Shown: positions 4,905 to 46,938, counted from the stretch's first letter. The stretch is DNA of 64,000 nt from Nanobdellota archaeon (GCA_038046385.1 JBBSWH010000001.1:39382-103381); one strand, 5' to 3'. Program-made: numbers and translations. The notes: generated by a model not told the origin, from the sequence alone.

Positions 4905-5023
4905 AGCCTCTGATGGGAATTGCACCCACGACCTTTGCCTTTTAGGCTAGCATATGGTACCAAGGCTTCGCGGATTAAAAGAATACTTCCAATCTAACGC
5001 AATGGCTACTATGCTACAGAGGC
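4905..5023 (-). tRNA. Intron-containing tRNA, isotype unresolved
   Basis: Acceptor GCCTCTG/CAGAGGC, T-arm GTGGG-TGCAATT-CCCAT, D-arm GCAT..TTGC. It is 119 nt, so ~45 nt are extra. Candidate anticodon loops read GGA or UGG, but I could not close the anticodon stem by hand. Confidence 0.55.
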
Positions 5024-7292: not shown

Positions 7293-7414
7293 AATATAAA
7301 TGCGGGGAACTGATGCGCCCCAACCTTTTCTTATATAAGAAAAGCTTGACCAAAAGAAGTATGCTACGCAGTTGTGAGGTAAACCTCACTAAAGAAAATA
7401 TAATGCGGGGGAAG
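7293..7414. mobile_element. Two-hairpin mini-insertion plus relic 3' end of tRNA-Leu(UAA), the displaced original tRNA flank
   Basis: aatataaatgcgggg (7293-7307) vs aatataatgcgggg (7397-7410). The core 7316-7392 aligns along its length with the reverse complement of 40129-40214. tgcgggggaag (7404-7414) equals the last 11 nt of the tRNA at 16760-16770. Confidence 0.7.
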
Positions 7415-7493
7415 CACATTCCGCCCCTATTAGAATGCGTATCTTAAATTCCCTTTCTTATTTATATATCTTTTCATGTTACGTAGGGTGCTT

Positions 7494-7967
7494 TTAGTAT
7501 TTTTTGAGTATAGAGAGAATTTCTTCAACTTTTCTACTCCTCTCTAAAGAATCATTTTTTTGCTCTGGCAATAGATTTTGAAATATAACAATCATAGAAT
7601 TAGAAAGAATAAGCATATTGGAAAGGATAGTCTCCATTTCTTCAATGGTAGGGATATTTTTACGCATTAAGAAGAACCTCTTTTTATGTAAGTATTTGTA
7701 CTCTATATTCAGATGTGCCCAAATTTTTCTTAAGTTTTTTTGTATATCTATAACTTCTTTAAAAAATTCATTAGATATAACTTCTTTGATAAACATGTTT
7801 GTAAGTATACTTTTCCTAAACATTAGCTCTGTCTGTAACTTATTCAAACTTTCTTTAAATTTATAATATGGCTTAATCATAAACTGGTTAAGAAGCTCTC
7901 CAGTTATGTATACTACCACTCCCCCTATAATTGTTAGTGAAGCCGTTAAAAATTCTGATTCATACAT
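7494..7967 (-). CDS. Hypothetical protein, N-terminal TM plus helical domain
   Basis: 157-aa ORF in the integrated element. Confidence 0.5.
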   Translation of the reverse strand: MYESEFLTASLTIIGGVVVYITGELLNQFMIKPYYKFKESLNKLQTELMFRKSILTNMFIKEVISNEFFKEVIDIQKNLRKIWAHLNIEYKYLHKKRFFLMRKNIPTIEEMETILSNMLILSNSMIVIFQNLLPEQKNDSLERSRKVEEILSILKKY

Positions 7968-8032
7968 ATCTTAAAAAGTTACTAAGATTTATTAATAAGC
8001 TTTCCTCTAATTAGTGTCTTCTTAAGAATTAA

Positions 8033-8941
8033 TTATAGTTTTTTGTGTTCAAGTTGCCTGATACGATTTAAAATTTTTCCAACCTCTCGTGGCCGCATGA
8101 AAGCCATAAACAGTATAAATGGAATTATAATAAAAGTTGCCCACACAACTATGACATAAATCCAAGTATAAATAACTTCGAATATATTGTTAAATTTATC
8201 AACACTCTCAATAGTTACCGACATAACCAACCAGGTCATAATAAAAAATATGTTTGCTATGGTTATTTTATTTAAGAATCTCGAAACTCTTATTTTATGG
8301 TTCAAGTACTTAATATTGTTCCCCATATGCAAGAAGAGGTAAGCTCCCAAATAAAAGATAACTGATAAGCTAAATTTGAAACTAACTTTATCTGCTGAGT
8401 CTGCACCCCCATTTACTCTGAAAAATAGATTAATAACAGTTCCTAAAAATATGGCTAATGTAGTTAGAAATTCTAATTTAGACTTTAAATCCTTGACATC
8501 AACAGAGGCAACAACTCTTAGTACTTGAGTTTGTTGGACAGTGGTTTCTGGTTTTTCTTTTACAAAAAAAGCAACTACACTCAATAATAATCCCATCAAA
8601 ATGAACAAAAGCTCCAATTGTCTGTAGTATTTTACTTTTTCATTCAGATAAATATATTTATTAGTCAAAGGACCCATATTTTCTGCCAGATTTCTCGCTT
8701 TTAGGGCATAATTTGAGCTATTGATTAAGAATTTTGTATCGCTTTTATTCATGTAATAGATTAGAAAATTAAGGTCAGATTCCGAACTCCAAGAATTAAC
8801 AGCATCACGAACGTAATCTCTTGTAGTAACAAATTCTTCTGATGTGCTTTGATAGAAATCTCCAATGAAATGAAAAAATATCGATAAAGTAACAGCTATG
8901 GTAGAAAGTATAATTAAATTATTTTTTGTTAAGCTAACCAT
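8033..8941 (-). CDS. Hypothetical multi-pass membrane protein
   Basis: 302-aa ORF with several TM segments. Confidence 0.55.
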   Translation of the reverse strand: MVSLTKNNLIILSTIAVTLSIFFHFIGDFYQSTSEEFVTTRDYVRDAVNSWSSESDLNFLIYYMNKSDTKFLINSSNYALKARNLAENMGPLTNKYIYLNEKVKYYRQLELLFILMGLLLSVVAFFVKEKPETTVQQTQVLRVVASVDVKDLKSKLEFLTTLAIFLGTVINLFFRVNGGADSADKVSFKFSLSVIFYLGAYLFLHMGNNIKYLNHKIRVSRFLNKITIANIFFIMTWLVMSVTIESVDKFNNIFEVIYTWIYVIVVWATFIIIPFILFMAFMRPREVGKILNRIRQLEHKKL

Positions 8942-9147
8942 GATTTAACCACCTCACCACCCCTTAACTGTAGTAAATAAGGCTTGTTTTATTAATTTAT
9001 CCAAAAAATATATAAGAAAATAAGCACTGGACACCTATACGCAAAGTTTAAATACTTTTAAAATTAGGGTAGTATCAGGGTATTTCGGTATACGAAATAT
9101 CCAATTCAGTCTAAGTGGTGCGGTTTACGTAATCACTTAGACTTTTT

Positions 9148-9945
9148 TTAAAATCTGGGTTCTGGGAAAACTTTTACTTTAACTGATCCATCTATTACTA
9201 CGCTTCCTATTTCTAAAGTGCATATTGGCTTTAATATTTTTAAGTACCCTTCATTATAGCACTGTTTTTTTAAATTTGAACATAGGAAGCAGTAATAGGA
9301 TCTTTGAAAAGCATAGCAAATTAAATCAGCAATTTCATAAAATGATGACTTGGACATCGGTTCAATATTTAAATCTGCTAATATATTTGAAAAATCTTTT
9401 ACATATGTGGTTCCATTCTTCATTACATCTCGATGCACCCTTTTAATATTAGACGCTAATTTAGTTGAGCTATCACATAAATTTACAATCCCTAAAGAGT
9501 TTTTATTATCTCCTCTTCCCTTAATTATTTTTTGAAATTTCTCTAATACGAACTCGTAAGCTAAAAGATAAGGGTTTGCAGGATGTTTGTATTTTTTCCT
9601 TAGGTTATGATTATCAATAACTATAATTATTGGTTCAATAGGCATCTTTGCAATGAACTCATACAGTTTCAACATTATTTCTTTGCCTTGTTGATCGGTT
9701 AGATACCCCTTATACCTATTTCTGTTGTTCCTGGAGATATGATTTAACTCTACAGCATGGGCTGGAGTAGTTTTAAGCTCTTTAGGGAATAGTGACTCTT
9801 TAAATTCTTTGAAAATCCTACTTTGATTAAAATAATCTTCTTCTTTTATAATTAAACCACCTAAAACAAAGAAATCAGATTGCTCTCTTATGTTAGGGTT
9901 ATCAATACGTGAACTTCCCGATTCATCTAAGTATAAGAGATACAT
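9148..9945 (-). CDS. DUF3800-like protein
   Basis: N-terminus MYLLYLDESGS matches the DUF3800 hallmark (hydrophobic-x-DESG); 265 aa. Confidence 0.6.
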   Translation of the reverse strand: MYLLYLDESGSSRIDNPNIREQSDFFVLGGLIIKEEDYFNQSRIFKEFKESLFPKELKTTPAHAVELNHISRNNRNRYKGYLTDQQGKEIMLKLYEFIAKMPIEPIIIVIDNHNLRKKYKHPANPYLLAYEFVLEKFQKIIKGRGDNKNSLGIVNLCDSSTKLASNIKRVHRDVMKNGTTYVKDFSNILADLNIEPMSKSSFYEIADLICYAFQRSYYCFLCSNLKKQCYNEGYLKILKPICTLEIGSVVIDGSVKVKVFPEPRF

Positions 9946-10210
9946 TATATAGGAAATTTTTTTGGTATTTATAAAGAATACTGTGTTACGCCCCTTTAAT
10001 GAAGAGGTATATGCACGCTTATATTTAAAATATTTTATTTTTTAGGTTTAAATATAATAAAAATTAGGAAAAAGTTTTGGTTATAGGATAACGCCTCGGT
10101 TAAATATATTTGAAGGCCAACCATCCTCCGATTGCAAAAGCTATCAGGCCATAAGCAATAAGTCGAAGTATAAACCTTTTATCCATTCTTTTTGGGCTGT
10201 CGAGTTAGTA

Positions 10211-10609
10211 TTATCTATTAATTGAAAAAAAACTCTCACCTTTTTTATAATTTTTTACCCTTGTAAACTTTTTTGAGTTTGGATAAATTTTAGTAAATTG
10301 ACAATCATCTATATTATCTCCCTTAAATGATATAGTTATCTCATCATAACTGCTCGGATATGTCTTAATTGCAAACTTATGAGCTGTTTCAAGATTATCT
10401 AATGCTATATGAAAAAGCCACTCAATAACAGCTTTTCCCCCCCATTTTTCTTTGATATAATCTTCGTAATCTTTAGTATAGGAATGTCGTTCTATTCTAT
10501 GATTGTATTTTAGCCATTTTCGAGGTTCATCTATCCATTGATGAAGTTCTTGAAAAGTCTGTCCAGTTCTACACTCACTTACTTCCATATGAAATTTTAG
10601 AGACGGCAT
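10211..10609 (-). CDS. Hypothetical protein
   Basis: 132-aa ORF, SD ggagg upstream, His-rich N-terminal half (ELHQWIDEP..HRIERH). Confidence 0.5.
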   Translation of the reverse strand: MPSLKFHMEVSECRTGQTFQELHQWIDEPRKWLKYNHRIERHSYTKDYEDYIKEKWGGKAVIEWLFHIALDNLETAHKFAIKTYPSSYDEITISFKGDNIDDCQFTKIYPNSKKFTRVKNYKKGESFFSINR

Positions 10610-10756
10610 CTTTAATCCTCCTAAACATTTAATTTTTTGGGCTGAAAAAGTAAAAATGAAGGGATAGTTTTTCGTTAGAATAACTTACCTTACCTTTTCC
10701 AGCTTTCCAACATAAAACCATTATAAAACATATTATAAAAGCTTTGCGACATAAAA

Positions 10757-11002
10757 TTAAGGATAATCAATACAAGACTCAGTATTTTCATCAGTACATC
10801 TATTAAATCGTCTACATGCTAAAAACCAGCCTTTGAAGAACCCATATTTCTTAAGTGCCAATATTGCATGATTTGAGCATGAAGGATAAAACCTACAAAT
10901 TATGTTTCTTTTTTTATTAAAATTTCTACCAATTTTCCCGTGCCATACTTTCTTTATAAAAAATATTGATATTAAAATCAAGAGATTATTTTTTCTTCTC
11001 AT
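10757..11002 (-). CDS. yidD: YidD-like membrane protein insertion efficiency factor
   Basis: CRFYPSCSNHAILALKKYGFFKGWFLACRRFNRC matches the YidD CRF-P-(T/S)CS...G...R..RC pattern. Confidence 0.65.
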   Translation of the reverse strand: MRRKNNLLILISIFFIKKVWHGKIGRNFNKKRNIICRFYPSCSNHAILALKKYGFFKGWFLACRRFNRCTDENTESCIDYP

Positions 11003-11294
11003 ATATACTCACTTCTTCAGTGTAATTCTGTGAACCACATTCTGGACATCTTCGTAAATTATCAAGTGAATCTTTAGATGCACCTACATTTCTTTGAGCT
11101 TGTAGAGCTGCACCAGAATTACAACAACACGCATTAGACATTTGGTTTAAAGCAGCAACACCTTTAGCACTTTCAATTTCTTTTTCTCTTTCTGATAAAG
11201 AATGCCACACCTTACCACATTCATTACATTTTCGTTTAAACTCTTTTACGTGCTTGTTCTTATCAAAATCCGCTTCCGAAATCTTTTTGCTCAT
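10986..11294 (-). CDS. Zinc-ribbon protein
   Basis: CNECG ... CPECG cysteine pairs; 102 aa. Confidence 0.55.
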   Translation of the reverse strand: MSKKISEADFDKNKHVKEFKRKCNECGKVWHSLSEREKEIESAKGVAALNQMSNACCCNSGAALQAQRNVGASKDSLDNLRRCPECGSQNYTEEVSIYEKKK

Positions 11295-11318
11295 TTTTCT
11301 AAAGATTATTTAAATATT

Positions 11319-11849
11319 TCAACACATACCATTGGTAAAACTTATCAGTTCTTTGGCATCAGCAGTGTATAGATATATATCTTTGCAAGATTTCATTAAT
11401 TCTAACCTGACGACTGGGATACCACCATCACATTCTTTTGTTTTGGATAGGCACTTATAATAGGCTTGATCTTTTGTTAAAACTTTTGGAGCTTTTGAGG
11501 TTTCATTAACCTTTTGCTGTGGCATGAAGTTAGAAATGAGAATCATAGCAGCTATAACTATAATGCCCCACAAAAAGAATTTTTTATAGTTTGGGTTTTT
11601 CTTATCTATTAAATTTGTTTTACTTACGCTAACATTTTTATTAATTTTATGTTCTCTTGACTTAAAATTCAATTTCTCTTTAAAGAACTTTCGTGATGGT
11701 GGAAGTATCACAAGTCCTATTGCGAGTGAGGTAGTTCCAACAATAAAAGATGAATCTGAAAAATTTCCTAAAGAAGCCAAAATAAAGATAATCCCAAAAA
11801 TCCAGCTAAAAACTCCTCCTAAAGTAATTTTTTTAACATCTTCTACCAT
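11319..11849 (-). CDS. Membrane protein
   Basis: 176-aa ORF with 3 TM and a Cys-containing C-terminal domain. Confidence 0.5.
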   Translation of the reverse strand: MVEDVKKITLGGVFSWIFGIIFILASLGNFSDSSFIVGTTSLAIGLVILPPSRKFFKEKLNFKSREHKINKNVSVSKTNLIDKKNPNYKKFFLWGIIVIAAMILISNFMPQQKVNETSKAPKVLTKDQAYYKCLSKTKECDGGIPVVRLELMKSCKDIYLYTADAKELISFTNGMC

Positions 11850-11881
11850 TAACTTACCACCACACTTCTATATCCATTTTT

Positions 11882-12556
11882 CTACGTTGACCTTAAGTTA
11901 ATATTAAATATATCGTTAATCTCACTATTGGAAGCAACAACTATTTTCAAGTCTTCAAGGTTTTCTGGAATATCAAACAAAACAAAACCTCTTTTTTTAA
12001 TGCCTGGGTTTATAGCATCACCAAACCCTGAAAATAAGGTAAAACTCTCTCCATTGTAAGTTCCAGTAGCATCATTATCACTAAGAAACTCCCTTCCTTG
12101 AATATCCTCTAATTTCATTAAAGTATTATCAAACTTAGCTGCCTTTTTAGCTAAATTTTCAACTTCTACTTCTATAATTAAATAAGTGCCGTCGGCTACT
12201 TGCATGCCACTAAACATTCCACCAGAAAAAGATTTTAGTTCTTTATTGCTTAAAAATGTCCACTTAAAATCTCCGGCCACTATTTCATCTTTAAAATTGT
12301 ACGTTACATTTCCAAAGAATTTTTTCTTACAATCTATAATATTGCTTACAATAGTAGATTCATCAGGGCAGACATATTGTATTTTTTCCACAATCTCAGT
12401 TTTAATTTCAACCTTTGGTGGACAAGAATTACAATCAAGCTCTTGGCACTTTGTAGAAGGACAGGCAGTTTCTTTGCATTCTGGACACTGAGGAACTGCT
12501 TGAGTACAAGCAGTAATAAACAACAATCCTATCAACAATAAAGCATAAACTTTCAA
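11882..12556 (-). CDS. Lipoprotein with Cys-rich linker and DUF4352-like beta-sandwich domain
   Basis: Signal plus lipobox FITAC; CPECKETACPSTKCQELDCNSCPP; C-terminal ..GTYLIIEVEVENLAKKA.. pattern. Confidence 0.6.
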   Translation of the reverse strand: MKVYALLLIGLLFITACTQAVPQCPECKETACPSTKCQELDCNSCPPKVEIKTEIVEKIQYVCPDESTIVSNIIDCKKKFFGNVTYNFKDEIVAGDFKWTFLSNKELKSFSGGMFSGMQVADGTYLIIEVEVENLAKKAAKFDNTLMKLEDIQGREFLSDNDATGTYNGESFTLFSGFGDAINPGIKKRGFVLFDIPENLEDLKIVVASNSEINDIFNINLRST

Positions 12557-12618
12557 ATTAAATACCCCCTAATAGATAATTTTTGAAGATGGCTTTAAAT
12601 AATTTTCTATCCTCTTAA

Positions 12619-12663
12619 TATTACGCTGATTATCACGCTTTCTTTTATTCTGATTATTACGCT
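12619..12663. promoter_or_regulatory. Direct-repeat operator candidate upstream of the wHTH gene
   Basis: ctgattatcacgct (12626-12639) and ctgattattacgct (12650-12663), plus attacgct at 12619-12626. Confidence 0.4.
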
Positions 12664-12671
12664 ATAGATAT

Positions 12672-12926
12672 ATGGATGACGAGTTAAAAATATTCTTAGC
12701 AAGAAGCAAGCTTAGAAGTAAGATTTTACAAGAGTTAGAAGAAAAGCCTCAAATAGCTTCTTTTTTGGCAAAAAAGATTAAAAAGCATAGAGAAGTTATA
12801 AGCAGGGTATTTTTGGATTTACAGAGAAAAAAGTTAGCTGTATGCACAAATTCAAAAGATTCAAGCTTTAGGTATTACAAAATAACAGAGCAAGGCAAAA
12901 AGGCACTTAAAGAGTTAAGAGTTTGA
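12672..12926 (+). CDS. Winged-helix transcriptional regulator (ArsR/TrmB-like)
   Basis: 84 aa; ..RSKILQELEEKPQIASFLAKKIKKHREVISRVFLDLQRKKL.. Confidence 0.6.
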   Translation: MDDELKIFLARSKLRSKILQELEEKPQIASFLAKKIKKHREVISRVFLDLQRKKLAVCTNSKDSSFRYYKITEQGKKALKELRV

Positions 12927-13093
12927 ATTTTCAAAATCTGACAAAAATTTCTGACAAGCGGTAGCTTTACCATATAAGAGATAAAAAATTCTACCCCCAC
13001 CCCCTATATGAAGTAATACTACTTCTATATTCTACATCCTATATAAGTCAGCACAGAAGTATTTATATAGTAGGCTTACTTTATTTATGAAAT

Positions 13094-13291
13094 ATGGAAG
13101 AACTAAAAGGAAAGAAAGTTAAGATTGTAACACTCAATTACTTCGAGACTAAGCAGAATGGGTTAATCAAAAGGCAGTACAGGGTTAGTATTGCTCCTAA
13201 GATTATAGAAAGCTTAGAACTGAAGGCTCACGATAAGCTCAAAGTATGGGTTAACAAGGCAAAGAAGCAGATTAGAATGACAAAATTATAA
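13094..13291 (+). CDS. AbrB/SpoVT-like small DNA-binding protein (tentative)
   Basis: 65 aa; RVSIAPKIIESLELKAHDKLKV resembles the AbrB/MazE swapped-hairpin motif. Confidence 0.45.
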   Translation: MEELKGKKVKIVTLNYFETKQNGLIKRQYRVSIAPKIIESLELKAHDKLKVWVNKAKKQIRMTKL

Positions 13292-13334
13292 TCATAAGAC
13301 TGCTGGCATAGACCAGCAGCTTGGAGTAAACAAA

Positions 13335-13496
13335 ATGGCTTGCGACCAATTAGATACTCCACAGGAAGCAGTTCCTGTGGCTATTAAAAACCTTTCTGGA
13401 CAAGAAAAGGTATTCAAAGACCAAAAGGCTCAGGATAGATTTGAGTACCTTGTAAGAACAAGGAATAAGGTTTGGGCAATTGTAAAATTCAAATAG
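13335..13496 (+). CDS. Small hypothetical protein (53 aa)
   Basis: Manual ORF MACDQLDTPQEAVPVAIKNLSGQEK...; below the track cutoff. Confidence 0.3.
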   Translation: MACDQLDTPQEAVPVAIKNLSGQEKVFKDQKAQDRFEYLVRTRNKVWAIVKFK

Positions 13497-13779
13497 AATT
13501 TTTTTTATTTTTCTTTTTATCCGATTCTTTTGTAAAATATGTTAGTAACTGTCCCATCATTGAATTTGGACTTATTCTTAGGGCGAGGCTTTCTAATGGG
13601 TATTTTTGGGCATTTAATGAAGATTTAAACTTTCCAATGTCTGATTTTGGGCCAGAGCTTCTTTCTCTTGAAATTTGAGCAAGCAGTTCTTTCCAATTTG
13701 AAGTTCGTTCTCTCCACTTCCTTCCTTCTGCTGCTATCTCAGGATTACCCTTTGGATTATTCCACCTTTTACCTATCAT
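13489..13779 (-). CDS. Hypothetical protein
   Basis: 96-aa ORF; competes with an antisense 68-aa ORF. Confidence 0.35.
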   Translation of the reverse strand: MIGKRWNNPKGNPEIAAEGRKWRERTSNWKELLAQISRERSSGPKSDIGKFKSSLNAQKYPLESLALRISPNSMMGQLLTYFTKESDKKKNKKNSI

Positions 13780-14057
13780 TTTTTGGTTTTGGAAGATAGT
13801 TCGTTTGGTTATTATCGATAAGTTATGAATATAAGTATTATAATCATTCTTCCTTCTTCAATAGGGCTATTATTTTTCGGTTTAGGGCTTCAAGTTGGTT
13901 AAGTTTATACCTTACCCAATCCTCAAAGTTTAACCCTTCTTCTTTTTCTTCCATTTTATAAATAATATAATTATTATATTATTGAGATGTATACTATGTA
14001 CTACGTACTGAACGTGAGATAGTGTCAAATAACATTGATGTTATGATAATATCCATA

Positions 14058-14462
14058 TTATTGTTCATGTAGTTTTGGTTTAACTTTATTCAATAAATAT
14101 TCAAATTCTTCATCTGAAAGGTCTTTTCCAAAGTTTTCGTAAAACCCTTGTTTTTGACCTTCAAAGAATTTTCTGTCTCTCTCAATAGCCTGTAGAGCGT
14201 TCTTCAAATATGGAATCCAATTTGAGTTAAGTTCTACTTTGATTTCTTCTATGCGACTTCTGCCTTTTAGTTTCTCTAATTCTTCACTCTCTTCTCTCAG
14301 TTCTTGCTGTCTTTTTTCTATTTCCTTATCAGTAAACAAATTGCTATCAATCAGTTTTCTGATATATTGAGATCTGTCCTTGCCAAGAATATTCATTCTG
14401 GCTATCTGCTCTGGTGTTAGCGTTATGCTGACATTAACAAATCTTGAGTGGTATTGTTTCAT
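14058..14462 (-). CDS. Ribbon-helix-helix (CopG-like) protein with coiled-coil tail
   Basis: VSITLTPEQIARMNILGKDRSQYIRKLID RHH pattern. Confidence 0.6.
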   Translation of the reverse strand: MKQYHSRFVNVSITLTPEQIARMNILGKDRSQYIRKLIDSNLFTDKEIEKRQQELREESEELEKLKGRSRIEEIKVELNSNWIPYLKNALQAIERDRKFFEGQKQGFYENFGKDLSDEEFEYLLNKVKPKLHEQ

Positions 14463-14655
14463 TTTTCTCCAGTTTTTTACGAATAAGTGAGCTTAAGTCT
14501 ATGCCGAGTTGTAAAGCCTCATGTTTTAATTGCAGTAACCTATCGGCTTCTAAACGAAAAGCTAAAAATTCTGTCTTCTTTTGGATATGATTGGATTTTT
14601 TCTCAAAGCCAGGGTGATAGTATTGTTTTTGCATAGTTATCACTACGTTATACAT
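14434..14655 (-). CDS. RHH-like small protein
   Basis: LAFRLEADRLLQLKHEALQLGIDLSSLIRKKLE. Confidence 0.5.
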   Translation of the reverse strand: MYNVVITMQKQYYHPGFEKKSNHIQKKTEFLAFRLEADRLLQLKHEALQLGIDLSSLIRKKLEKNETIPLKIC

Positions 14656-14780
14656 ACCTTTTTATTTCAGAATTAGCTACCCTTTATTGCTTAGGTTTGG
14701 AAGCTAATTCCTTACTTAATTCTTGCTCTGCCTCCTCTGTCAAGGAGGCTATTCTTTTAATTATATTATTATAAACTAAG

Positions 14781-14921
14781 TTAGGATTTTTCATTTTCTT
14801 TTACTGCCATTTGAATTAGTTGAAAAACAAGGTTGCTAACTGACCTACCATCTTTTTTTGCTTTATTTTTTATCTTTTCAGCAAGTTCATCTGAAATAAT
14901 AGTTTGGAGTTTTTTACTCAT
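14781..14921 (-). CDS. RHH (CopG-like) small protein, 46 aa
   Basis: Manual ORF MSKKLQTIISDELAEKIKNKAKKDGRSVSNLVFQLIQMAVKENEKS. Confidence 0.45.
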   Translation of the reverse strand: MSKKLQTIISDELAEKIKNKAKKDGRSVSNLVFQLIQMAVKENEKS

Positions 14922-15010
14922 GCTAATCGAAATGAGTATAGTGGATTAATATATAAAGAGTGATTCAATGGCAAGTTATTTGTAACACTTCGCACAAGTG
15001 CTATATTTTT

Positions 15011-15406
15011 CTAACCGGTTAGAAACCGGTTTCCACTTTTTGAAAAGTATGGGAAAGATGGAACGCGAAATCGATTTCGCAAATTGAAGCAATATGGCAA
15101 AAACTCAAATGCCAACCGGTTGGCGAACCTAAAACAATATGGTAGGGTGGGACCTGAGCATTTGACAAACCGGTTTGTCAAATTGCAACCGGTTGCAAAA
15201 TTTGAAGAAATATGGGGATGGGACTGAAAATCGATTTTCAAGATTGAAACAATACGGAATTAGGTTGCTTATAATATCTCTTTTGGTGCCGATTTTCTGG
15301 AAATCGATTTCCACTTCCAAAAATTGTTTTCGCTTTTGTCGAATCGATTCGACAAAACCAAGTAAAAATGTCAAACCGGTTTGCCATTTTGTCAAATCGA
15401 TTTTAC
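15011..15406. repeat. Array of 11 short palindromes (AAAYCGRTTT cores) interleaved with 5 TTGAARNAATATGG motifs
   Basis: Perfect palindromes at 15011-22, 15022-33, 15065-80, 15111-24, 15163-80, 15183-98, 15225-40, 15299-312, 15337-54 and 15372-83; one imperfect at 15391-406. Confidence 0.85.
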
Positions 15407-15428
15407 ATTTACTAAATATCTAAATAAA

Positions 15429-16703
15429 CTAATTCTTTAATTCCTTAATCTCCTTCTGTAGTTCTGAAACTATCTTAAACAACTTTTGTACCTCTGGGAT
15501 CTGCATAAAATTATCATATTTTTGCATTTGATCTTGTATCTTTGTTCTATCTAAGGGCCTCTTGCAGTTGTTGCACGTTTCAGAAGTAAACCCATTTTTT
15601 ACATTACAGAATAAGCAGTCTTTGATTTTTGGCTGCAATTCCTTATATTTTTCATCCTGAACTAATCCTCTTTTTACCAGCTCAATCTTAAAGGATTCAT
15701 CATGCTGGCTTAAATCATAAGTTTTGAGCTGTTTGTTAGACGTCCATCTTGCAGCGTGCTGTATTTCTAAATCACTATCCCCTCTTAATCTCCGGAAAGT
15801 TACTCCATTTCGCTTTAGGGAATAAGCAGTCACGGGCTTTTCTATTCCAAGATATTTACAGGCTGTATGTATCTTGTTGTTGATGTTTTTAGGCTTAAAT
15901 TGTTGCCCAAATTCTCTGTCACTCAAATTGACGAATAGAAAGGCATCTTTATTCTTCTTAAGCGGATGTTGCTCTAACCATTTTATAAGATAAGGATAGC
16001 TATCTATACATTGCAAAAATCCTGTTCCTTCTTTTCCATGCTCAGAAATCCATATCTTAGCATAGTTATCATAAAGCTCGACATCTTTTACTTTTGTGTA
16101 AAGAATTTCTTGTGGTCTTCCTAAACTTTCCAATGACAAAGTTAGATAAAACTGCATCCTTGGATCATTAGAAAAGAAACTAACTACTTTTTCAAACTCT
16201 TCAAACGTAACCTTATCACCCCTCCTTTTTTCTTTGCTTTTGTCAATTTTAGGGCTTAAATGCCTAACGGGATATGGCACAAGTGTATCGTCAATTCTTT
16301 CTCTTTCATCCTTTTCAGGAAAAAGCACCTTCCACATATGCTTTAGGTCTCTTATGAAATCAGATTTGCTCTTTGGAGACTTATAGGAAGTATGCATAAA
16401 AGATACAATGCTGTTGACATCCTCTCTTTCCAAATCCTTTAAGTCCTTGTCAGTTGAATTGCAAATAAGCCTCATACTCATAAGAAGCCGATTTCGCCTA
16501 ACATAGCTAAGATCTTTAGCTTCAAAAACTTTGAATAGCTGCTCGAAATAGACTAAATTATCCTTATTCTTGCAGTAGTACTTACCTCTCTTAGTTACTT
16601 CCTGCCTTTCTTCAGGCTTTACAACAAATTGATCCAGGTTTTTCTTAAATCTCCCGTAAATCCTTTCATTATGGTATATATCGTCTTCTGCCATGGCTAT
16701 CAT
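15429..16703 (-). CDS. Tyrosine recombinase/integrase with C-terminal zinc ribbon
   Basis: 424 aa; HAARWTS...LKTYD (HxxR...Y catalytic box); CLFCN..CNNC; lies directly downstream of the tRNA-Leu 3' end. Confidence 0.8.
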   Translation of the reverse strand: MIAMAEDDIYHNERIYGRFKKNLDQFVVKPEERQEVTKRGKYYCKNKDNLVYFEQLFKVFEAKDLSYVRRNRLLMSMRLICNSTDKDLKDLEREDVNSIVSFMHTSYKSPKSKSDFIRDLKHMWKVLFPEKDERERIDDTLVPYPVRHLSPKIDKSKEKRRGDKVTFEEFEKVVSFFSNDPRMQFYLTLSLESLGRPQEILYTKVKDVELYDNYAKIWISEHGKEGTGFLQCIDSYPYLIKWLEQHPLKKNKDAFLFVNLSDREFGQQFKPKNINNKIHTACKYLGIEKPVTAYSLKRNGVTFRRLRGDSDLEIQHAARWTSNKQLKTYDLSQHDESFKIELVKRGLVQDEKYKELQPKIKDCLFCNVKNGFTSETCNNCKRPLDRTKIQDQMQKYDNFMQIPEVQKLFKIVSELQKEIKELKN

Positions 16704-16759
16704 TCTCCTGCTTCCGACTTATATACTCTTGTTAAACAACGCATTCATTTAGAAAATAG

Positions 16760-16878
16760 GTGCGGGGGAAGGGATTCGAACCCCCGAATCCACTAAGGAA
16801 CAGGATAGCTTATCTCGCTTACAGCGCGAGTGTTCCATCTTAAGTCCTGCGCGTTTGGCCAGGCTTCGCTACCCCCGC
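16760..16878 (-). tRNA. tRNA-Leu(UAA), class II, ~32-nt intron in the anticodon loop
   Basis: GCGGGGG/CCCCCGC+A acceptor, CAGGA-CTTAAGA..[intron]..TCCTG, long variable arm, GGGGG-TTCGAAT-CCCTT. Confidence 0.8.
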
Positions 16879-17030: not shown

Positions 17031-17552
17031 TTACCCGTACTTAAACTTCTGCAGCTTGAAGAATGACTGTATCCTCTTGAACAGCTCGCGCCCCTGCATG
17101 TTAACTACGCCGTCGTACCTGTCAGACCAATAACTGTAGATGAACCTGTCAATCAGCGTCCTAAAGAACCTGAGAACCGGCCTCGATTGCCAGTATGTTC
17201 CGTGCAGATGCGCTGATATGAAGCATTCAACAAGAATGTGAACATCTCCATTATTGATTTTGTACTTTTTTCCGTCTTTTTTGATAATAATCTCTTTAAC
17301 ATTGTCCATCTGCGCCCTTAAAACAACGTCTCCGTGATGATAATCATCAAGATGCGAATGGATTTCTGTAAGCCATTCAATTTTTTTGCCGTCTTTTGTG
17401 ACGTGCTCCATCTTTCTCTTATGCTCTTTCTCAAATCCGTTTTCCTTTGCCCAGTCATCAACTTCCTTGTAGAAATCCTCGGCCGAAAAAGGGCCGTTGT
17501 ACGCCATCCTTAAGTCATAAAGCACTTGTTTTTTTTCTGAGATTAAAATCAC
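17031..17552 (-). CDS. Uncharacterised paralog family protein (member 3 of 3)
   Basis: 173 aa. Shares Y.GP...DF(Y/F)..(V/I)D.W..E.GF.K...GK.IEW...DGKK.K...G.V.I...YW...P.L.F.R.L.D with 17549-18076. Confidence 0.7.
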   Translation of the reverse strand: MILISEKKQVLYDLRMAYNGPFSAEDFYKEVDDWAKENGFEKEHKRKMEHVTKDGKKIEWLTEIHSHLDDYHHGDVVLRAQMDNVKEIIIKKDGKKYKINNGDVHILVECFISAHLHGTYWQSRPVLRFFRTLIDRFIYSYWSDRYDGVVNMQGRELFKRIQSFFKLQKFKYG

Positions 17553-18076
17553 CCTGATGGTTTCGATATTACAGAATAATGCCTGTACATGTTAAGGAAT
17601 TTTTCTATGCTGTCATGAAGATGGTTTATATCGTGCGTCAGTCTCTGCTCAAACCTTTCTGTGTAAGTCTTGAAGAAAACATAGTCAAAAAGTGTCCTTA
17701 TGAAGTGCAAAAACGGTTTTTCATCCCAATAGCTTTCATAGTCAAACTCCATGAAGCCGTCTATCACTATTACTAATCTCCCGTTGTCAACCTTTTTTTT
17801 CTTTCCATTAACCATAGCATCGCTTCTTACAAAATCATATCCAATAACGCGTATCTTGACAATATACCTTATGTAATCTGTTATTTTTTTCCAGGGGGAA
17901 ATCTGCCATTCTATGAACTTGCCGTTTGCAGTGTTCTGCTCAAAATCCTTATCCTGCTTTTTGTCAAACCCACGCTCCCAGAGGAAATGGTCTATTACGC
18001 TGAAGAAATCATTCAGGTCAACTGGCCCGCTGTAATCCAGCTTCTGGTGGTCGACTACTAGCTTTAAGTGTCCCAT
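17549..18076 (-). CDS. Uncharacterised paralog family protein (member 2 of 3)
   Basis: 175 aa; 4-nt overlap with the downstream paralog. Confidence 0.7.
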   Translation of the reverse strand: MGHLKLVVDHQKLDYSGPVDLNDFFSVIDHFLWERGFDKKQDKDFEQNTANGKFIEWQISPWKKITDYIRYIVKIRVIGYDFVRSDAMVNGKKKKVDNGRLVIVIDGFMEFDYESYWDEKPFLHFIRTLFDYVFFKTYTERFEQRLTHDINHLHDSIEKFLNMYRHYSVISKPSG

Positions 18077-18157
18077 TTTTAGTAATTATTTTTTTAAATT
18101 ATCTTTGCTGTTTATTATTATTCAGTGTTTTTTCATTGTTGTTATTTTGATATTTTT

Positions 18158-18215
18158 CCGTTGCTTCGCAACAAACTCTTGGCTCGCCGCATTGCTCGCC
18201 TATTTATTATAATTT
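18158..18215. repeat. GCGAAGC-hairpin intergenic repeat, short copy
   Basis: gttgcttcgcaac (18160-18172) ... ggctcgccgcattgctcgcctatttattataa. Confidence 0.5.
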
Positions 18216-18219
18216 TTTC

Positions 18220-18783
18220 CTAATGCGTTCTTGAAAAGTTTCTGTGCTGGTTGCCTTCTGAAGTCATCTTCAGCCTTTCTTTTATCAAAGCATGCAATTT
18301 TAACACAATGTTATAGTAAAGTTCATCCCACCAGACGCCTTCAAGTTTTTTTCTGATAACATACTTGTTGTAGAAGCTTTTCAGATGGGCAACGAAAGCG
18401 CTTCTTTCCCATACTTTTTCATGATCAGTTGTTATTTTTCCGTGCAGCTGAATCCAAACTCTTCCTTTTGTCATTTTTTTCTTTTTTCCGTTTTTTGTTA
18501 CAATCTCTACATCATGCATATCGAAAGTCTCTATTGTGATATTAACAGACCATTCATAATAATCTTCAACAGCTCTTGTTGCTTCAAACATGTACAAAAT
18601 TTCTGATCCAAAAGGGCCGGGCCTCCTTAATCTTTGCTGCGTCTCGCGAAGCTTGAACTTCTTTTCCCTGAAAAAGTTTGCAATAGACTCATACAGATCC
18701 TGCATATCAAGAATTCCTTTGTATTGGACATAAACAGTAGGCGTTCCGGCTTCTGCATTGTGCACAAAATCCTCTGGCTTCAT
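18220..18783 (-). CDS. Uncharacterised paralog family protein (member 1 of 3, divergent)
   Basis: 187 aa; same central NGKKKKM.KG.V.I and C-terminal helical pattern. Confidence 0.65.
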   Translation of the reverse strand: MKPEDFVHNAEAGTPTVYVQYKGILDMQDLYESIANFFREKKFKLRETQQRLRRPGPFGSEILYMFEATRAVEDYYEWSVNITIETFDMHDVEIVTKNGKKKKMTKGRVWIQLHGKITTDHEKVWERSAFVAHLKSFYNKYVIRKKLEGVWWDELYYNIVLKLHALIKERLKMTSEGNQHRNFSRTH

Positions 18784-20687: not shown

Positions 20688-20835
20688 CCCCGCGTAGCTT
20701 AACGGCGGAGCGCTCGGCTGTGAGACTTTAAAGTCTGGCTAGAGATGCGCTCTAAGACCTTACGCTATTCTAGCGAGGAATGATAGAGAGCCAGTCGTGC
20801 CCGGGAGGTTGCTGGTTCAACTCCGGCCGCGGGGA
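20688..20835 (+). tRNA. tRNA-His(GUG), tentative, with ~75-nt intron at the canonical 37/38 position
   Basis: CCCCGCG/CGCGGGG+A acceptor, D-arm GCTT..GAGC, CTCGG-CTGTGA[intron]C-CCGGG, GCTGG-TTCAACT-CCGGC; no encoded G-1. Confidence 0.7.
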
Positions 20836-20933: not shown

Positions 20934-21557
20934 ATGAAAACAAAAATATTGAAATATGGTTTTAAGAAACTAACAAAAGCTAAATCCAGAATCATTGCAC
21001 ATTTGATAGGAGACGGCTGTGTTTACAAAAGCAATCATGATTATAACATTAAATATGAAGTAAAAGATCAAGAATCTTTAGATTCTTTTGAAGAAGATTT
21101 GATTTCCGTTTATGGCTTAAAATTAACTAAAGGATTTAAAAATTCCGGATTTACTGGCAAGCCCATCCCTTTTATAAGATTAAGATCAAAACTGGCTTAT
21201 GAGGACTTATTGCGCTACGCAACCTATAATTCAAGAGATTGGAAAATTAATTCAATAATTCCCCCTTCATCTAAAACAATAAAAAAAGAATTTCTCAAGG
21301 CATTGTTTGATGACGAAGGAAGTGTAATAATAAAAAGCAAAAATAGCGAAGTCAGGCTCTATTCAATAAATTTGGACGGCTTAACACAAATACAAAAAAT
21401 ACTGCTGGATTTTGGTATTAACACAAAGATAACTCCAGGATACGGCTTGAAAAGGAATGTGTATGCCGTAATAATTAAGGATTTAATGGCATTTAGGAAA
21501 AAGATAGGATTCAATTTAAGGAGAAAACAAGACAAACTTGATACCTTAAAATTCTAA
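20934..21557 (+). CDS. LAGLIDADG homing endonuclease, free-standing
   Basis: IAHLIGDGCV and LKALFDDEGSV double LAGLIDADG motifs; 207 aa. Confidence 0.8.
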   Translation: MKTKILKYGFKKLTKAKSRIIAHLIGDGCVYKSNHDYNIKYEVKDQESLDSFEEDLISVYGLKLTKGFKNSGFTGKPIPFIRLRSKLAYEDLLRYATYNSRDWKINSIIPPSSKTIKKEFLKALFDDEGSVIIKSKNSEVRLYSINLDGLTQIQKILLDFGINTKITPGYGLKRNVYAVIIKDLMAFRKKIGFNLRRKQDKLDTLKF

Positions 21558-46850: not shown

Positions 46851-46938
46851 GGGCCCATAGCTCAGCCTGCTTAGAGCACAAGACTCTTAAGAATTTGGAG
46901 TTATCTTGGGGTCAGGGGTTGAAATCCCCTTGGGCCCA
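46851..46938 (+). tRNA. tRNA-Lys(CUU) with ~13-nt anticodon-loop intron
   Basis: GGGCCCA/TGGGCCC+A, GCTC..GAGC, CAAGA-CTCTTAA[intron]-TCTTG, AGGGG-TTGAAAT-CCCCT. Confidence 0.75.

Follow-up and report, generated by a model that had tools for sequence, protein, structure and literature searches.

A repeat-built array of eleven different yet symmetric sites in an integrated element of a DPANN archaeon

Introduction

Several classes of cis-acting DNA are built from repeated symmetric sites. Dyad-site origins include the iterons of phage lambda ori, the family of repeats (FR) and dyad symmetry (DS) elements of Epstein-Barr virus oriP, and archaeal oriC, in which opposed origin recognition box (ORB) elements surround an unwinding element; opposed blocks of sites around an AT-rich center are the usual plan of an origin. 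Ribbon-helix-helix (RHH) repressors act on operator arrays, as do F55 of SSV1 and AvtR of AFV6, and RHH proteins serve centromeres in the ParR/parC, ParG/parH and omega systems. To our knowledge, almost nothing is known about the replication, segregation and regulation of the mobile elements of DPANN archaea. The F-plasmid sopC site is made up of 12 repeats, 43 bp in length, and SopB binds the 16-bp inverted repeat that every one of them contains (PMC3177203). Here we describe an array of about 400 bp (15008..15407, strandless) in which eleven dyad-symmetric sites, no two alike, are set on a degenerate repeat scaffold. The array lies within an integrated element in 64,000 nucleotides of chromosomal DNA from a DPANN archaeon (Nanobdellota archaeon, GCA_038046385.1, JBBSWH010000001.1:39382-103381), hereafter the window, and had been picked out in a sequence-only reading of that window.

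The array shares features with each of these systems and departs from each. Like sopC, a type Ia partition site, it consists of non-coding direct repeats, with units of 42-54 bp that each carry a 16-bp dyad (PMC3177203 for sopC). The repeats and the binding motif of sopC are essentially identical, whereas the array has eleven different arms, two cores and a part that is inverted; sopC adjoins sopA and sopB, whereas the element encodes no ParA/ParB-type genes. For an RHH-type partition site (type Ib/II) the element has the RHH genes but no NTPase. With dyad-site origins, whose sites are phased and serve a dimeric initiator, the array shares several inverted-repeat sites, though with phasing that is suggestive only, opposed blocks, though about a center of moderate AT-richness, and a mobile or episomal setting. 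The sites of those origins, however, are near-identical and lie beside or inside the initiator gene, whereas the element has no initiator gene and the window no Orc1/Cdc6 gene. RHH operator arrays are comparable in that an integrative element has small RHH genes next to non-coding DNA rich in repeats, with multi-site cooperative binding as a possible further parallel. In known RHH sites, by contrast, one sequence is repeated, in short direct or inverted copies, and relatives of the present element have no array beside their RHH genes, only one palindrome specific to each element.

Two further comparisons concern recombination sites and operators. Integron attC sites also form a series beside a tyrosine recombinase gene, and also keep their symmetry while their sequence varies. 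They are, however, imperfect palindromes of 55-140 bp with R and L boxes and extrahelical bases, are separated by cassettes and are used by IntI, whereas the sites of the array are perfect over 10-24 bp, lie 11-73 bp apart and adjoin an integrase of a tRNA-targeting family. LacI-family operators share with the array a palindrome with a central CG and a AANCGNTT core, and sites 2 and 8 include nearly all of the 14-mer PtxS site, a LacI-family operator (TGAAACCGGTTTCA; PMC11678583). The array half-site is one base longer (TGRAAAYC/G compared to TGAAACC/G, the slash marking the dyad center), and there is no LacI-type gene in the element; judged by sequence, the resemblance is one of motif only. 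On these comparisons the array would be closest in its working to a sopC-type or origin-type dyad-site array, yet it falls outside every family tested. It is a cis-acting site, built from repeats, in a mobile element, and its odd trait is that every dyad is different yet symmetric. With its eleven distinct symmetric sites, so compact a cis-element lends itself unusually well to clean experiments, and arms that are symmetric but not conserved raise the question of whether the symmetry itself is read, as structure, or is kept by a mutational process.

Results

Eleven sites, each different and each symmetric

A palindrome scan with a minimum of 10 bp returned 99 perfect palindromes over the whole 64 kb, 11 of them (10-24 bp) within 15008-15403 (Table 1). 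The two 400-bp bins of the array contain 6 and 5 perfect palindromes, compared to a maximum of 3 elsewhere in the window. The sequence-only reading had arrived at the same number of palindromes and at the same division between centers, ACCGGT in six and ATCGAT in five. It had taken one palindrome to be imperfect and the lengths to be 12-18 bp, which needs correction: all eleven are perfect over 10-24 bp, and two extend to 24 bp. All five copies of AATCGATT in the window lie inside the array, as do six of the nine copies of AACCGGTT. AAYCGRTT was observed 15 times vs 4.7 expected, a count reached by none of 100 shuffles. Such a concentration goes far beyond chance, and the array is real. Its sequence is 100% identical in contigs of two further sequencing runs (ERR3858129 and SRR32696696), which excludes an assembly artifact; the same identity among the three available assemblies makes them uninformative on population variation. 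No further AAAYCGRTTT site, with up to one mismatch, is present in any promoter of the element outside the array. The motif is therefore confined to one local cis site and does not mark a dispersed regulon.

The symmetry of the sites was tested by aligning the 22 half-sites on the central CG. Positions -1, -3 and -4 of the half-site are invariant (C, A and A, respectively). Six sites have C at position -2 and five have T, and the base at +2 is complementary in 11 of 11 (p = 0.002); hybrid ACCGAT cores occur in none of the 11 sites, which leaves two discrete cores only. The arms outside the core vary freely, with four, three, four and two different bases at positions -5 to -8, respectively, yet they vary symmetrically. 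Forty of the 44 cells at positions -8 to -5 are symmetric vs about 41% expected, and 45 of 55 at positions -9 to -5 vs a permutation mean of 22.7 (p <= 1e-5). Position -9 by itself is symmetric in 5 of 11 sites, which is chance, and the symmetry stays at chance level further out. As the symmetry is near-perfect to +/-8 bp and at chance beyond, the unit is a 16-bp dyad, NNNN-AAYCGRTT-NNNN (pattern form NNNNAAYCGRTTNNNN). The outer 4-mers are different in all 11 sites, in agreement with the earlier statement that the arms differ between sites, and they fall into three loose sub-families (TGWCRAAYCG, TGRAAAYCG and the rest).

Repeat scaffold and helical phasing

The dyads are embedded in a scaffold of two opposed blocks (Table 1). 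Each unit of the left block runs in the same order: the AAYCGRTT core, exactly 16 nt, TATGG, a GRTGGRAC box and then the next dyad, the identity between repeat units being 60-76%. The left half of the array thus repeats in tandem, degenerately but with an unvarying 16 nt from core to TATGG, and its spacing is more ordered than the irregular one described in the sequence-only reading. The five interleaved copies of TTGAARNAATATGG reported there are partly borne out. The motif does recur, with two exact copies (15084 and 15202), one with 1 mismatch (15244) and one with 2 (15129), but the fifth, near 15041, fits only with an indel, and the true positions are one base to the right of those reported.

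The stretch between the opposed blocks, with its TATAATAT motif, is short (35 bp) and moderate in AT-richness; a promoter or unwinding function is one that we infer only. The dyad centers are phased along the helix (R = 0.70 at 10.3 bp per turn), with 9 of 11 within about 1 bp of one phase. The p value after a scan over helical repeats is about 0.02, so that the phasing of the site centers is suggestive, not strong.

The integrated element and its relatives

The chromosomal nature of the window is evident from housekeeping genes further along it, which encode SRP54, class I lysyl-tRNA synthetase (LysRS), deoxyhypusine synthase and FtsZ. The array was correctly placed by the sequence-only reading inside an integrated element, between the 3' end of the integrase gene (15429) and the first RHH gene (14921). 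About 60 bp separate the start of the integrase gene from the 3' end of the intron-bearing tRNA gene at 16761-16878, and this order of tRNA followed by integrase is common to many of 62 related loci. The 3' end of the tRNA is repeated at 7404, exactly where the G+C content drops, which delimits an element of about 9.4 kb (7404-16771). The 11-bp direct repeat itself, TGCGGGGGAAG (7404-7414 and 16761-16771), is short (BLAST E = 0.6); the two copies are probably the attL and attR sites of the element. The integrase is 100% identical to a protein of a "Nanoarchaeota archaeon" on a 183-kb contig (CAYHVO010000003.1) and belongs to a large family, with 606 matches at E <= 1e-10. The products of the element are the integrase, three RHH-type proteins, a winged helix-turn-helix (wHTH) protein, an AbrB-like protein, DUF3800, DUF4352 and YidD-like proteins, and membrane proteins. 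Among the open reading frames (ORFs) of the element there is no recognizable replication, partition or capsid gene, no member of a P-loop or ParB family, and no gene for an HUH nuclease, a Y1 transposase or an integron-type integrase.

A PDB sequence search gave weak matches of the 46-aa RHH protein to Arc, Mnt and AvtR, and of the wHTH protein to ArsR and PadR. The AlphaFold 2 (AF2) model of the 134-aa RHH protein has a pLDDT of 68.5, and Foldseek found no PDB match to it below E = 3.5. The inverted repeat CACTT-N5-AAGTG that separates the array from the RHH promoter is, by analogy with relatives, likely an autoregulatory RHH operator. In the six closest relatives with flanking DNA (L001-L003 and L209-L211), the integrase is followed by an ORF of 190-298 aa on the reverse strand, then by an RHH_5 gene and another small RHH gene. 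The reverse-strand ORF lies directly downstream of the integrase and has no Pfam family on record, and the array of the window occupies its exact slot. The slot ORFs of L002 and L003 show no similarity to each other, and tblastn detected none between their products and the array. The position downstream of the integrase looks like a hypervariable cargo slot, with the array as its content in the window. Every relative has, at its RHH promoter, a single palindrome or repeat peculiar to it, such as TGTAACAAGTTTGTTACA in L002 and GTAGTGTATAATATACACTAC in L211. Given these and the separate CACTT-N5-AAGTG of the window, the array is not the usual RHH operator of the family. The array is also absent from the homologues of the 134-aa RHH protein, and its link to the RHH cluster appears weak. 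Of the roles put forward in the sequence-only reading, protein binding of the origin, centromere or operator type is still the best class; the specific tie to the RHH proteins is weakened by the relatives, which keep RHH genes in loci that have no array.

One of the relatives, L003, encodes directly after its RHH pair a 585-aa protein with a Walker-A-like motif, SESGKSK (8772-10529), which has no counterpart in the element of the window; this P-loop protein may be a replication protein. The integrase family, at 40-58% identity over full length, is present in DPANN metagenome-assembled genomes and in bacterial genomes (L021, L048, L036, L028, L059 and others). The bacterial carriers comprise a 6.48-Mb Desulfatiglandales contig, a 5.66-Mb Latescibacterota chromosome and an Omnitrophota contig. 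With multi-megabase contigs among the carriers, contamination is unlikely, and this distribution suggests a cross-domain family of tRNA-targeting integrative elements.

Table 1. Coordinates of the array, its neighbors and the slot ORFs of related elements (window coordinates unless a locus is named)
Feature	Coordinates	Strand	Remarks
Palindrome 1	15008..15025	strandless	TTTCTAACCGGTTAGAAA, 18 bp, CCGG core; palindrome scan
Palindrome 2	15020..15035	strandless	Perfect over GAAACCGGTTTC 15022-15033 (12 bp); 16-bp frame has one mismatch, at -7
Palindrome 3	15065..15080	strandless	GCGAAATCGATTTCGC, 16 bp, TCGA core
Palindrome 4	15111..15124	strandless	GCCAACCGGTTGGC, 14 bp, CCGG core
Palindrome 5	15160..15183	strandless	ATTTGACAAACCGGTTTGTCAAAT, perfect 24 bp
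Palindrome 6	15183..15198	strandless	TTGCAACCGGTTGCAA, 16 bp
Palindrome 7	15225..15240	strandless	TGAAAATCGATTTTCA, 16 bp
Palindrome 8	15298..15313	strandless	TGGAAATCGATTTCCA, 16 bp
Palindrome 9	15334..15357	strandless	TTTTGTCGAATCGATTCGACAAAA, perfect 24 bp
Palindrome 10	15365..15390	strandless	Perfect over CAAACCGGTTTG 15372-15383 (12 bp); 26 bp with one mismatch
Palindrome 11	15390..15407	strandless	Perfect over AAATCGATTT 15394-15403 (10 bp); 18 bp with one mismatch
Left block	15024..15260	+	5-6 direct degenerate units, period 42-54 bp
TATGG motifs	15084-15097, 15129-15142, 15202-15215, 15244-15257, near 15041		Left block; the one near 15041 is degenerate
G-rich GRTGGRAC boxes	15057-15064, 15146-15153, 15217-15224		Left block
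Array center	15262..15296	strandless	35 bp between the opposed blocks, repeat-free; TATA-like TATAATAT at 15270-15277
Right block	15298..15407	-	About 4 units of the left-block kind, inverted, shorter and more degenerate
Tyrosine integrase	15429..16703	-	3' end abuts the array
tRNA with intron, integration target	16761..16878	-	3' end TGCGGGGGAAG at 16761-16771 recurs at 7404-7414
Inverted repeat CACTT-N5-AAGTG	14986..15000	strandless	Outside the array, between the array and the RHH promoter
RHH_5 (CopG/Arc-like) gene	14781..14921	-	First of the RHH cluster; 46-aa protein
Second RHH-like gene	14434..14655	-	Weak CopG_antitoxin match; conserved in L002 and L003
134-aa protein, RHH-like N-terminus and helical C-terminal domain	14058..14462	-	Only 6 homologues found
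Reverse-strand ORF, L001	1588-2322
Reverse-strand ORF, L002	5190-5924
Reverse-strand ORF, L003	7346-8242
Reverse-strand ORF, L209	2747-3319
Reverse-strand ORF, L210	1443-2057
Reverse-strand ORF, L211	1335-2003

Searches for a second array

The array was sought in about 215 fetched loci, including the 62 with related integrases. None of these 62 contains a cluster of perfect or one-mismatch palindromes, and BLAST of the array vs all fetched loci returned chance matches only, the best of them (L037, E = 0.002) inside an ATPase gene. Four pattern scans of IMG/VR gave chance matches or simple arrays of identical repeats, and blastn in distant mode found no match to the array in the phage and plasmid collections. 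Related elements and plasmids, which the sequence-only reading had named as places where the array might recur, thus yielded none, in the related-integrase loci, the six close relatives and the plasmid collections alike. In the metagenome scan the matches listed were dominated by a repeated element of gutless-worm metagenomes, so that prokaryotic relatives may be missed. The absence of a second array holds for the fetched loci, IMG/VR and the phage and plasmid collections, and is not established for metagenomes.

The scans brought up three other kinds of repeat. The gutless-worm element (L071-L190, e.g., L142 848-1275; Ga0056108, Ga0056133-35, Ga0209783 and others) is about 430 bp long and has terminal inverted repeats of alternating AAACCGGTTT and AATCGATT motifs; by this structure it looks like a eukaryotic miniature inverted-repeat transposable element (MITE) whose subterminal repeats have the two cores of the array. 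A G+C-rich bacterial contig (L128, 2920-3180) carries about 12 copies of GAAAYCGRTTTC at a spacing of about 23 bp beside a gene for a SecF-like membrane protein and, unlike the window, has hybrid cores (AACCGATT). Three viral contigs (L066 12617-12678, L202 2950-3370 and L206 6685-6780) have non-coding arrays of identical CAAACCGGTTTG (4 copies) or AAAATCGATTTT (at least 6 copies). These are simple operator-like or iteron-like repeats, and their arms do not vary.

Identities rejected

Several known identities were considered for the array and rejected. It is not a clustered regularly interspaced short palindromic repeat (CRISPR) locus, as already stated in the sequence-only reading: a constant repeat is absent, and Tandem Repeats Finder (TRF) gives only a 2-copy 21-bp repeat, with the unit identity quoted above. 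Rfam 15, in both gathering and E-value modes (E <= 1), returned only two noise matches (20 and 13 bits vs thresholds of 45 and 50), which rejects a known RNA family. A MITE or transposon remnant is rejected as the ends of the array are not alignable as inverted repeats and there is neither a target duplication nor another copy in the window. Dispersed palindromes of the repetitive extragenic palindromic (REP) or bacterial interspersed mosaic element (BIME) type are rejected as well, with palindrome, motif and BLAST scans finding no further copy of the array in the other 63.6 kb. An attachment (att) site is rejected because the integrase family integrates at the tRNA on the 5' side of the integrase; the array is about 1.35 kb from that junction and on the wrong side of the gene. 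The repeats of a type III toxin-antitoxin RNA (ToxI-like) would be near-identical, whereas the present units are 60-76% identical, and the downstream genes encode RHH proteins.

Discussion

A proposed duplex platform for a symmetric protein

The reading that we favor, tentatively and with somewhat less than even confidence, is that the array is a cis-acting platform of duplex DNA for a two-fold-symmetric DNA-binding protein. Each of the eleven 16-bp dyads would be fitted to a symmetric protein, with either a dimer or a dimer of dimers in that role. Most sites would lie on one face of the helix, in two opposed blocks that flank the 35-bp TATA-like center, and a higher-order nucleoprotein complex would form as many phased sites became occupied. 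The two discrete cores, in the absence of hybrids, would represent two classes of site, corresponding to two related specificities or to strong and weak sites for one protein. The covariation of -2 with +2 bears directly on the choice between duplex and folded DNA. Base pairing cannot explain it, because these bases sit in the 4-nt loop of the would-be hairpin, whereas duplex recognition can. Further support comes from the fixed 16-bp extent of the symmetry, the weak folding of the hairpins, the absence of a consistent G-T/G-U pattern among the arm mismatches, the phasing of the centers and the confinement of the motif to the array. The layout speaks for it too, tandem units of about 43-45 bp with a 16-bp inverted repeat recalling sopC and the opposed blocks recalling origins, as does the rejection of coding, known RNA, CRISPR, att-site and MITE identities. 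The anatomy of the array, its symmetry statistics, its non-coding status and its place in a variable slot are shown, whereas we infer both the binding of a protein and the function of the resulting complex. The three RHH proteins of the element, its wHTH protein and its AbrB-like protein are candidate binders, and no result ties any one of them to the array.

Three uses of such a platform were considered. The first in rank, although rather unlikely when taken by itself, is an origin-like start or maintenance site of the excised circle that depends on host or helper factors. Next comes a region that regulates or silences the transcription units on either side, those of the integrase and the RHH genes, which is quite unlikely. 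A centromere-like site is improbable, and other uses share the little that remains. Were the array a host- or helper-dependent origin or a centromere, the element would be a satellite-like replicon and could seed vectors for DPANN hosts.

Several results weigh against a duplex platform. A replication initiator or a partition ATPase is absent among the ORFs of the element. The six close relatives keep the integrase and the RHH module without the array, and a separate operator-like repeat is present at the RHH promoter of the window. Function has no comparative support, because no second array was found. The phasing is only marginal and is sensitive to the helical repeat that is assumed. Lastly, the outer arms are all different yet symmetric, which a dimer that reads sequence does not require and which is a classical signature of base pairing.

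Possible stem-loops read by shape

This last point is the core of the alternative that survives best, which we nonetheless regard as unlikely: the sites are stem-loops read by shape, either as folded single-stranded DNA or cruciforms, with a part in priming, nicking or recombination, or as RNA, in the 3' untranslated region of the integrase transcript, the RHH leader or a protein sponge. The conserved AA/YCGR/UU tip would be the recognition element, and the variable stems would need only to pair. The symmetry statistics are what this predicts, since the arms covary without conservation of sequence, with all 11 outer 4-mers different and 40 of 44 cells symmetric. The sub-family comparison, read from the half-site alignment, shows 3 compensated double changes vs 3 uncompensated ones, far more compensation than under neutral drift. 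On either strand the whole region also folds better than its shuffles (z = -3.5 and -4.0). Past the integrase stop on the minus strand there is a hairpin with a T-run behind it (15383-15362), and terminator-like matches number 4 vs 0.6 expected. On the other side, the -2/+2 covariation falls in the would-be tetraloop, where pairing leaves it unexplained. Most of the hairpins are marginal: the folding energies of the 16-mers, taken as single-stranded DNA, lie between -0.7 and -4.3 kcal/mol, and one 16-mer does not fold. The 4 arm mismatches, read directly, have no consistent G-T/G-U pattern on either strand. There is neither tolerance of G-U nor a strand bias, and the palindromes are as good on one strand as on the other, an unusual trait in RNA elements. 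The Rfam search and the lack of an HUH nuclease, a Y1 transposase or an integron-type integrase among the ORFs of the element also speak against it. In its most specific form, which is quite unlikely, there would be eleven shape-read hairpins with a self-complementary tip (AA-YCGR-UU/TT) and freely covarying stems, an archaeal counterpart of attC or of CsrB-type sponge RNAs, borne in the cargo slot of a DPANN integrative element. A related variant would make of the array an operator library that titrates several different dimeric regulators. Should the sites prove to be read by shape, the interest of the array would rise sharply.

Possible symmetry without present function

More doubtful is an array with no present function, either an old tandem duplication of a unit with a short palindrome in it, kept symmetric by quasipalindrome template switching or the remnant of an inserted repeat element. 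Template switching, in which one arm is copied onto the other, perfects imperfect inverted repeats without selection (PMC7202029). It could have been the route to the symmetry of the array, whether the result is a functional duplex site or has no function at all. The orphan status of the array fits this account: it is absent from the approximately 215 fetched loci, the 62 with related integrases among them, and from the six close relatives, and it resides in a variable cargo slot. The spread of the perfect lengths from 10 to 24 bp fits as well. The state of the repeat units does not. They have diverged to 60-76% identity, yet in none has the core, the symmetry of at least 14-16 bp or the 16-nt spacing to TATGG been lost; neutral decay would be expected to break some of these, and hybrid cores are absent. 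For an inserted element in particular, there is no terminal inverted repeat, target duplication or other copy in the window. If neutral, the array would be a striking natural case of palindromes kept perfect by mutation.

Coding and restriction-decoy readings

A decayed or frameshift-requiring gene on the + strand, encoding a repeat protein with the motif NR[FL]xxLKxYG, is very improbable. The frame at 15015-15221 (+) is open and reads NRFPLFEKYG, NRFRKLKQYG and NRLANLKQYG, the motif recurring four times. Of the four unit spacings, three are divisible by 3; in this frame both cores encode Asn-Arg-Phe (AAC-CGG-TTT and AAT-CGA-TTT, synonymous), and the slot gene of the relatives is on that same strand. 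The repeat frame, however, lacks a start codon downstream of its stop at 15012 and is broken at 15187. The ORFs on the opposite strand are equally long or longer (76 and 88 aa), as expected for stop-poor repeats. Pfam and PHROG gave no match for the ORFs of the array, and phmmer vs 1.84 billion representative proteins gave a single match at E = 3.6e-4, with a BLASTP E of 1.4, and none that is credible. A word-index search found no homologue of the longest ORF (88 aa), the slot proteins of L002 and L003 are dissimilar to the array, and the public assemblies have no gene called at the array. A gene would also leave eleven perfect palindromes unexplained. The array is thus non-coding, as stated in the sequence-only reading.

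The slightest weight of all goes to the idea that the array diverts, as decoy or methylation sink, a restriction-modification system with ACCGGT and ATCGAT as its targets. The sequence-only reading entertained it on the ground that both cores are 6-bp type-II-like palindromes, and no result supports it: outside the array the two hexamers occur at their Markov expectations (6 vs 6.3 and 6 vs 6.2, respectively), which argues that the host does not avoid them, and a decoy would be served by a hexamer, with no need of 16-bp symmetry, a fixed TATGG gap or phasing. A modest share of the probability is assigned to none of these readings.

Other features of the window

Rfam detects four tRNA genes in the window, at 4905-5023, 16761-16878, 20688-20835 and 46851-46938, all of which are missed by ARAGORN. 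Their lengths of 88-148 nt indicate that all four contain introns. Outside the element, beyond its tRNA, three consecutive ORFs of 173, 175 and 187 aa (17031-18783, minus strand) have no Pfam family and, by eye, appear to be mutual paralogues. Directly downstream of the 148-nt tRNA gene at 20688-20835 lies an ORF (20934-21557, plus strand) in which LAGLIDADG-like motifs, LIGDGCVY and LFDDEGSV, were recognized by eye; it may encode a homing endonuclease.

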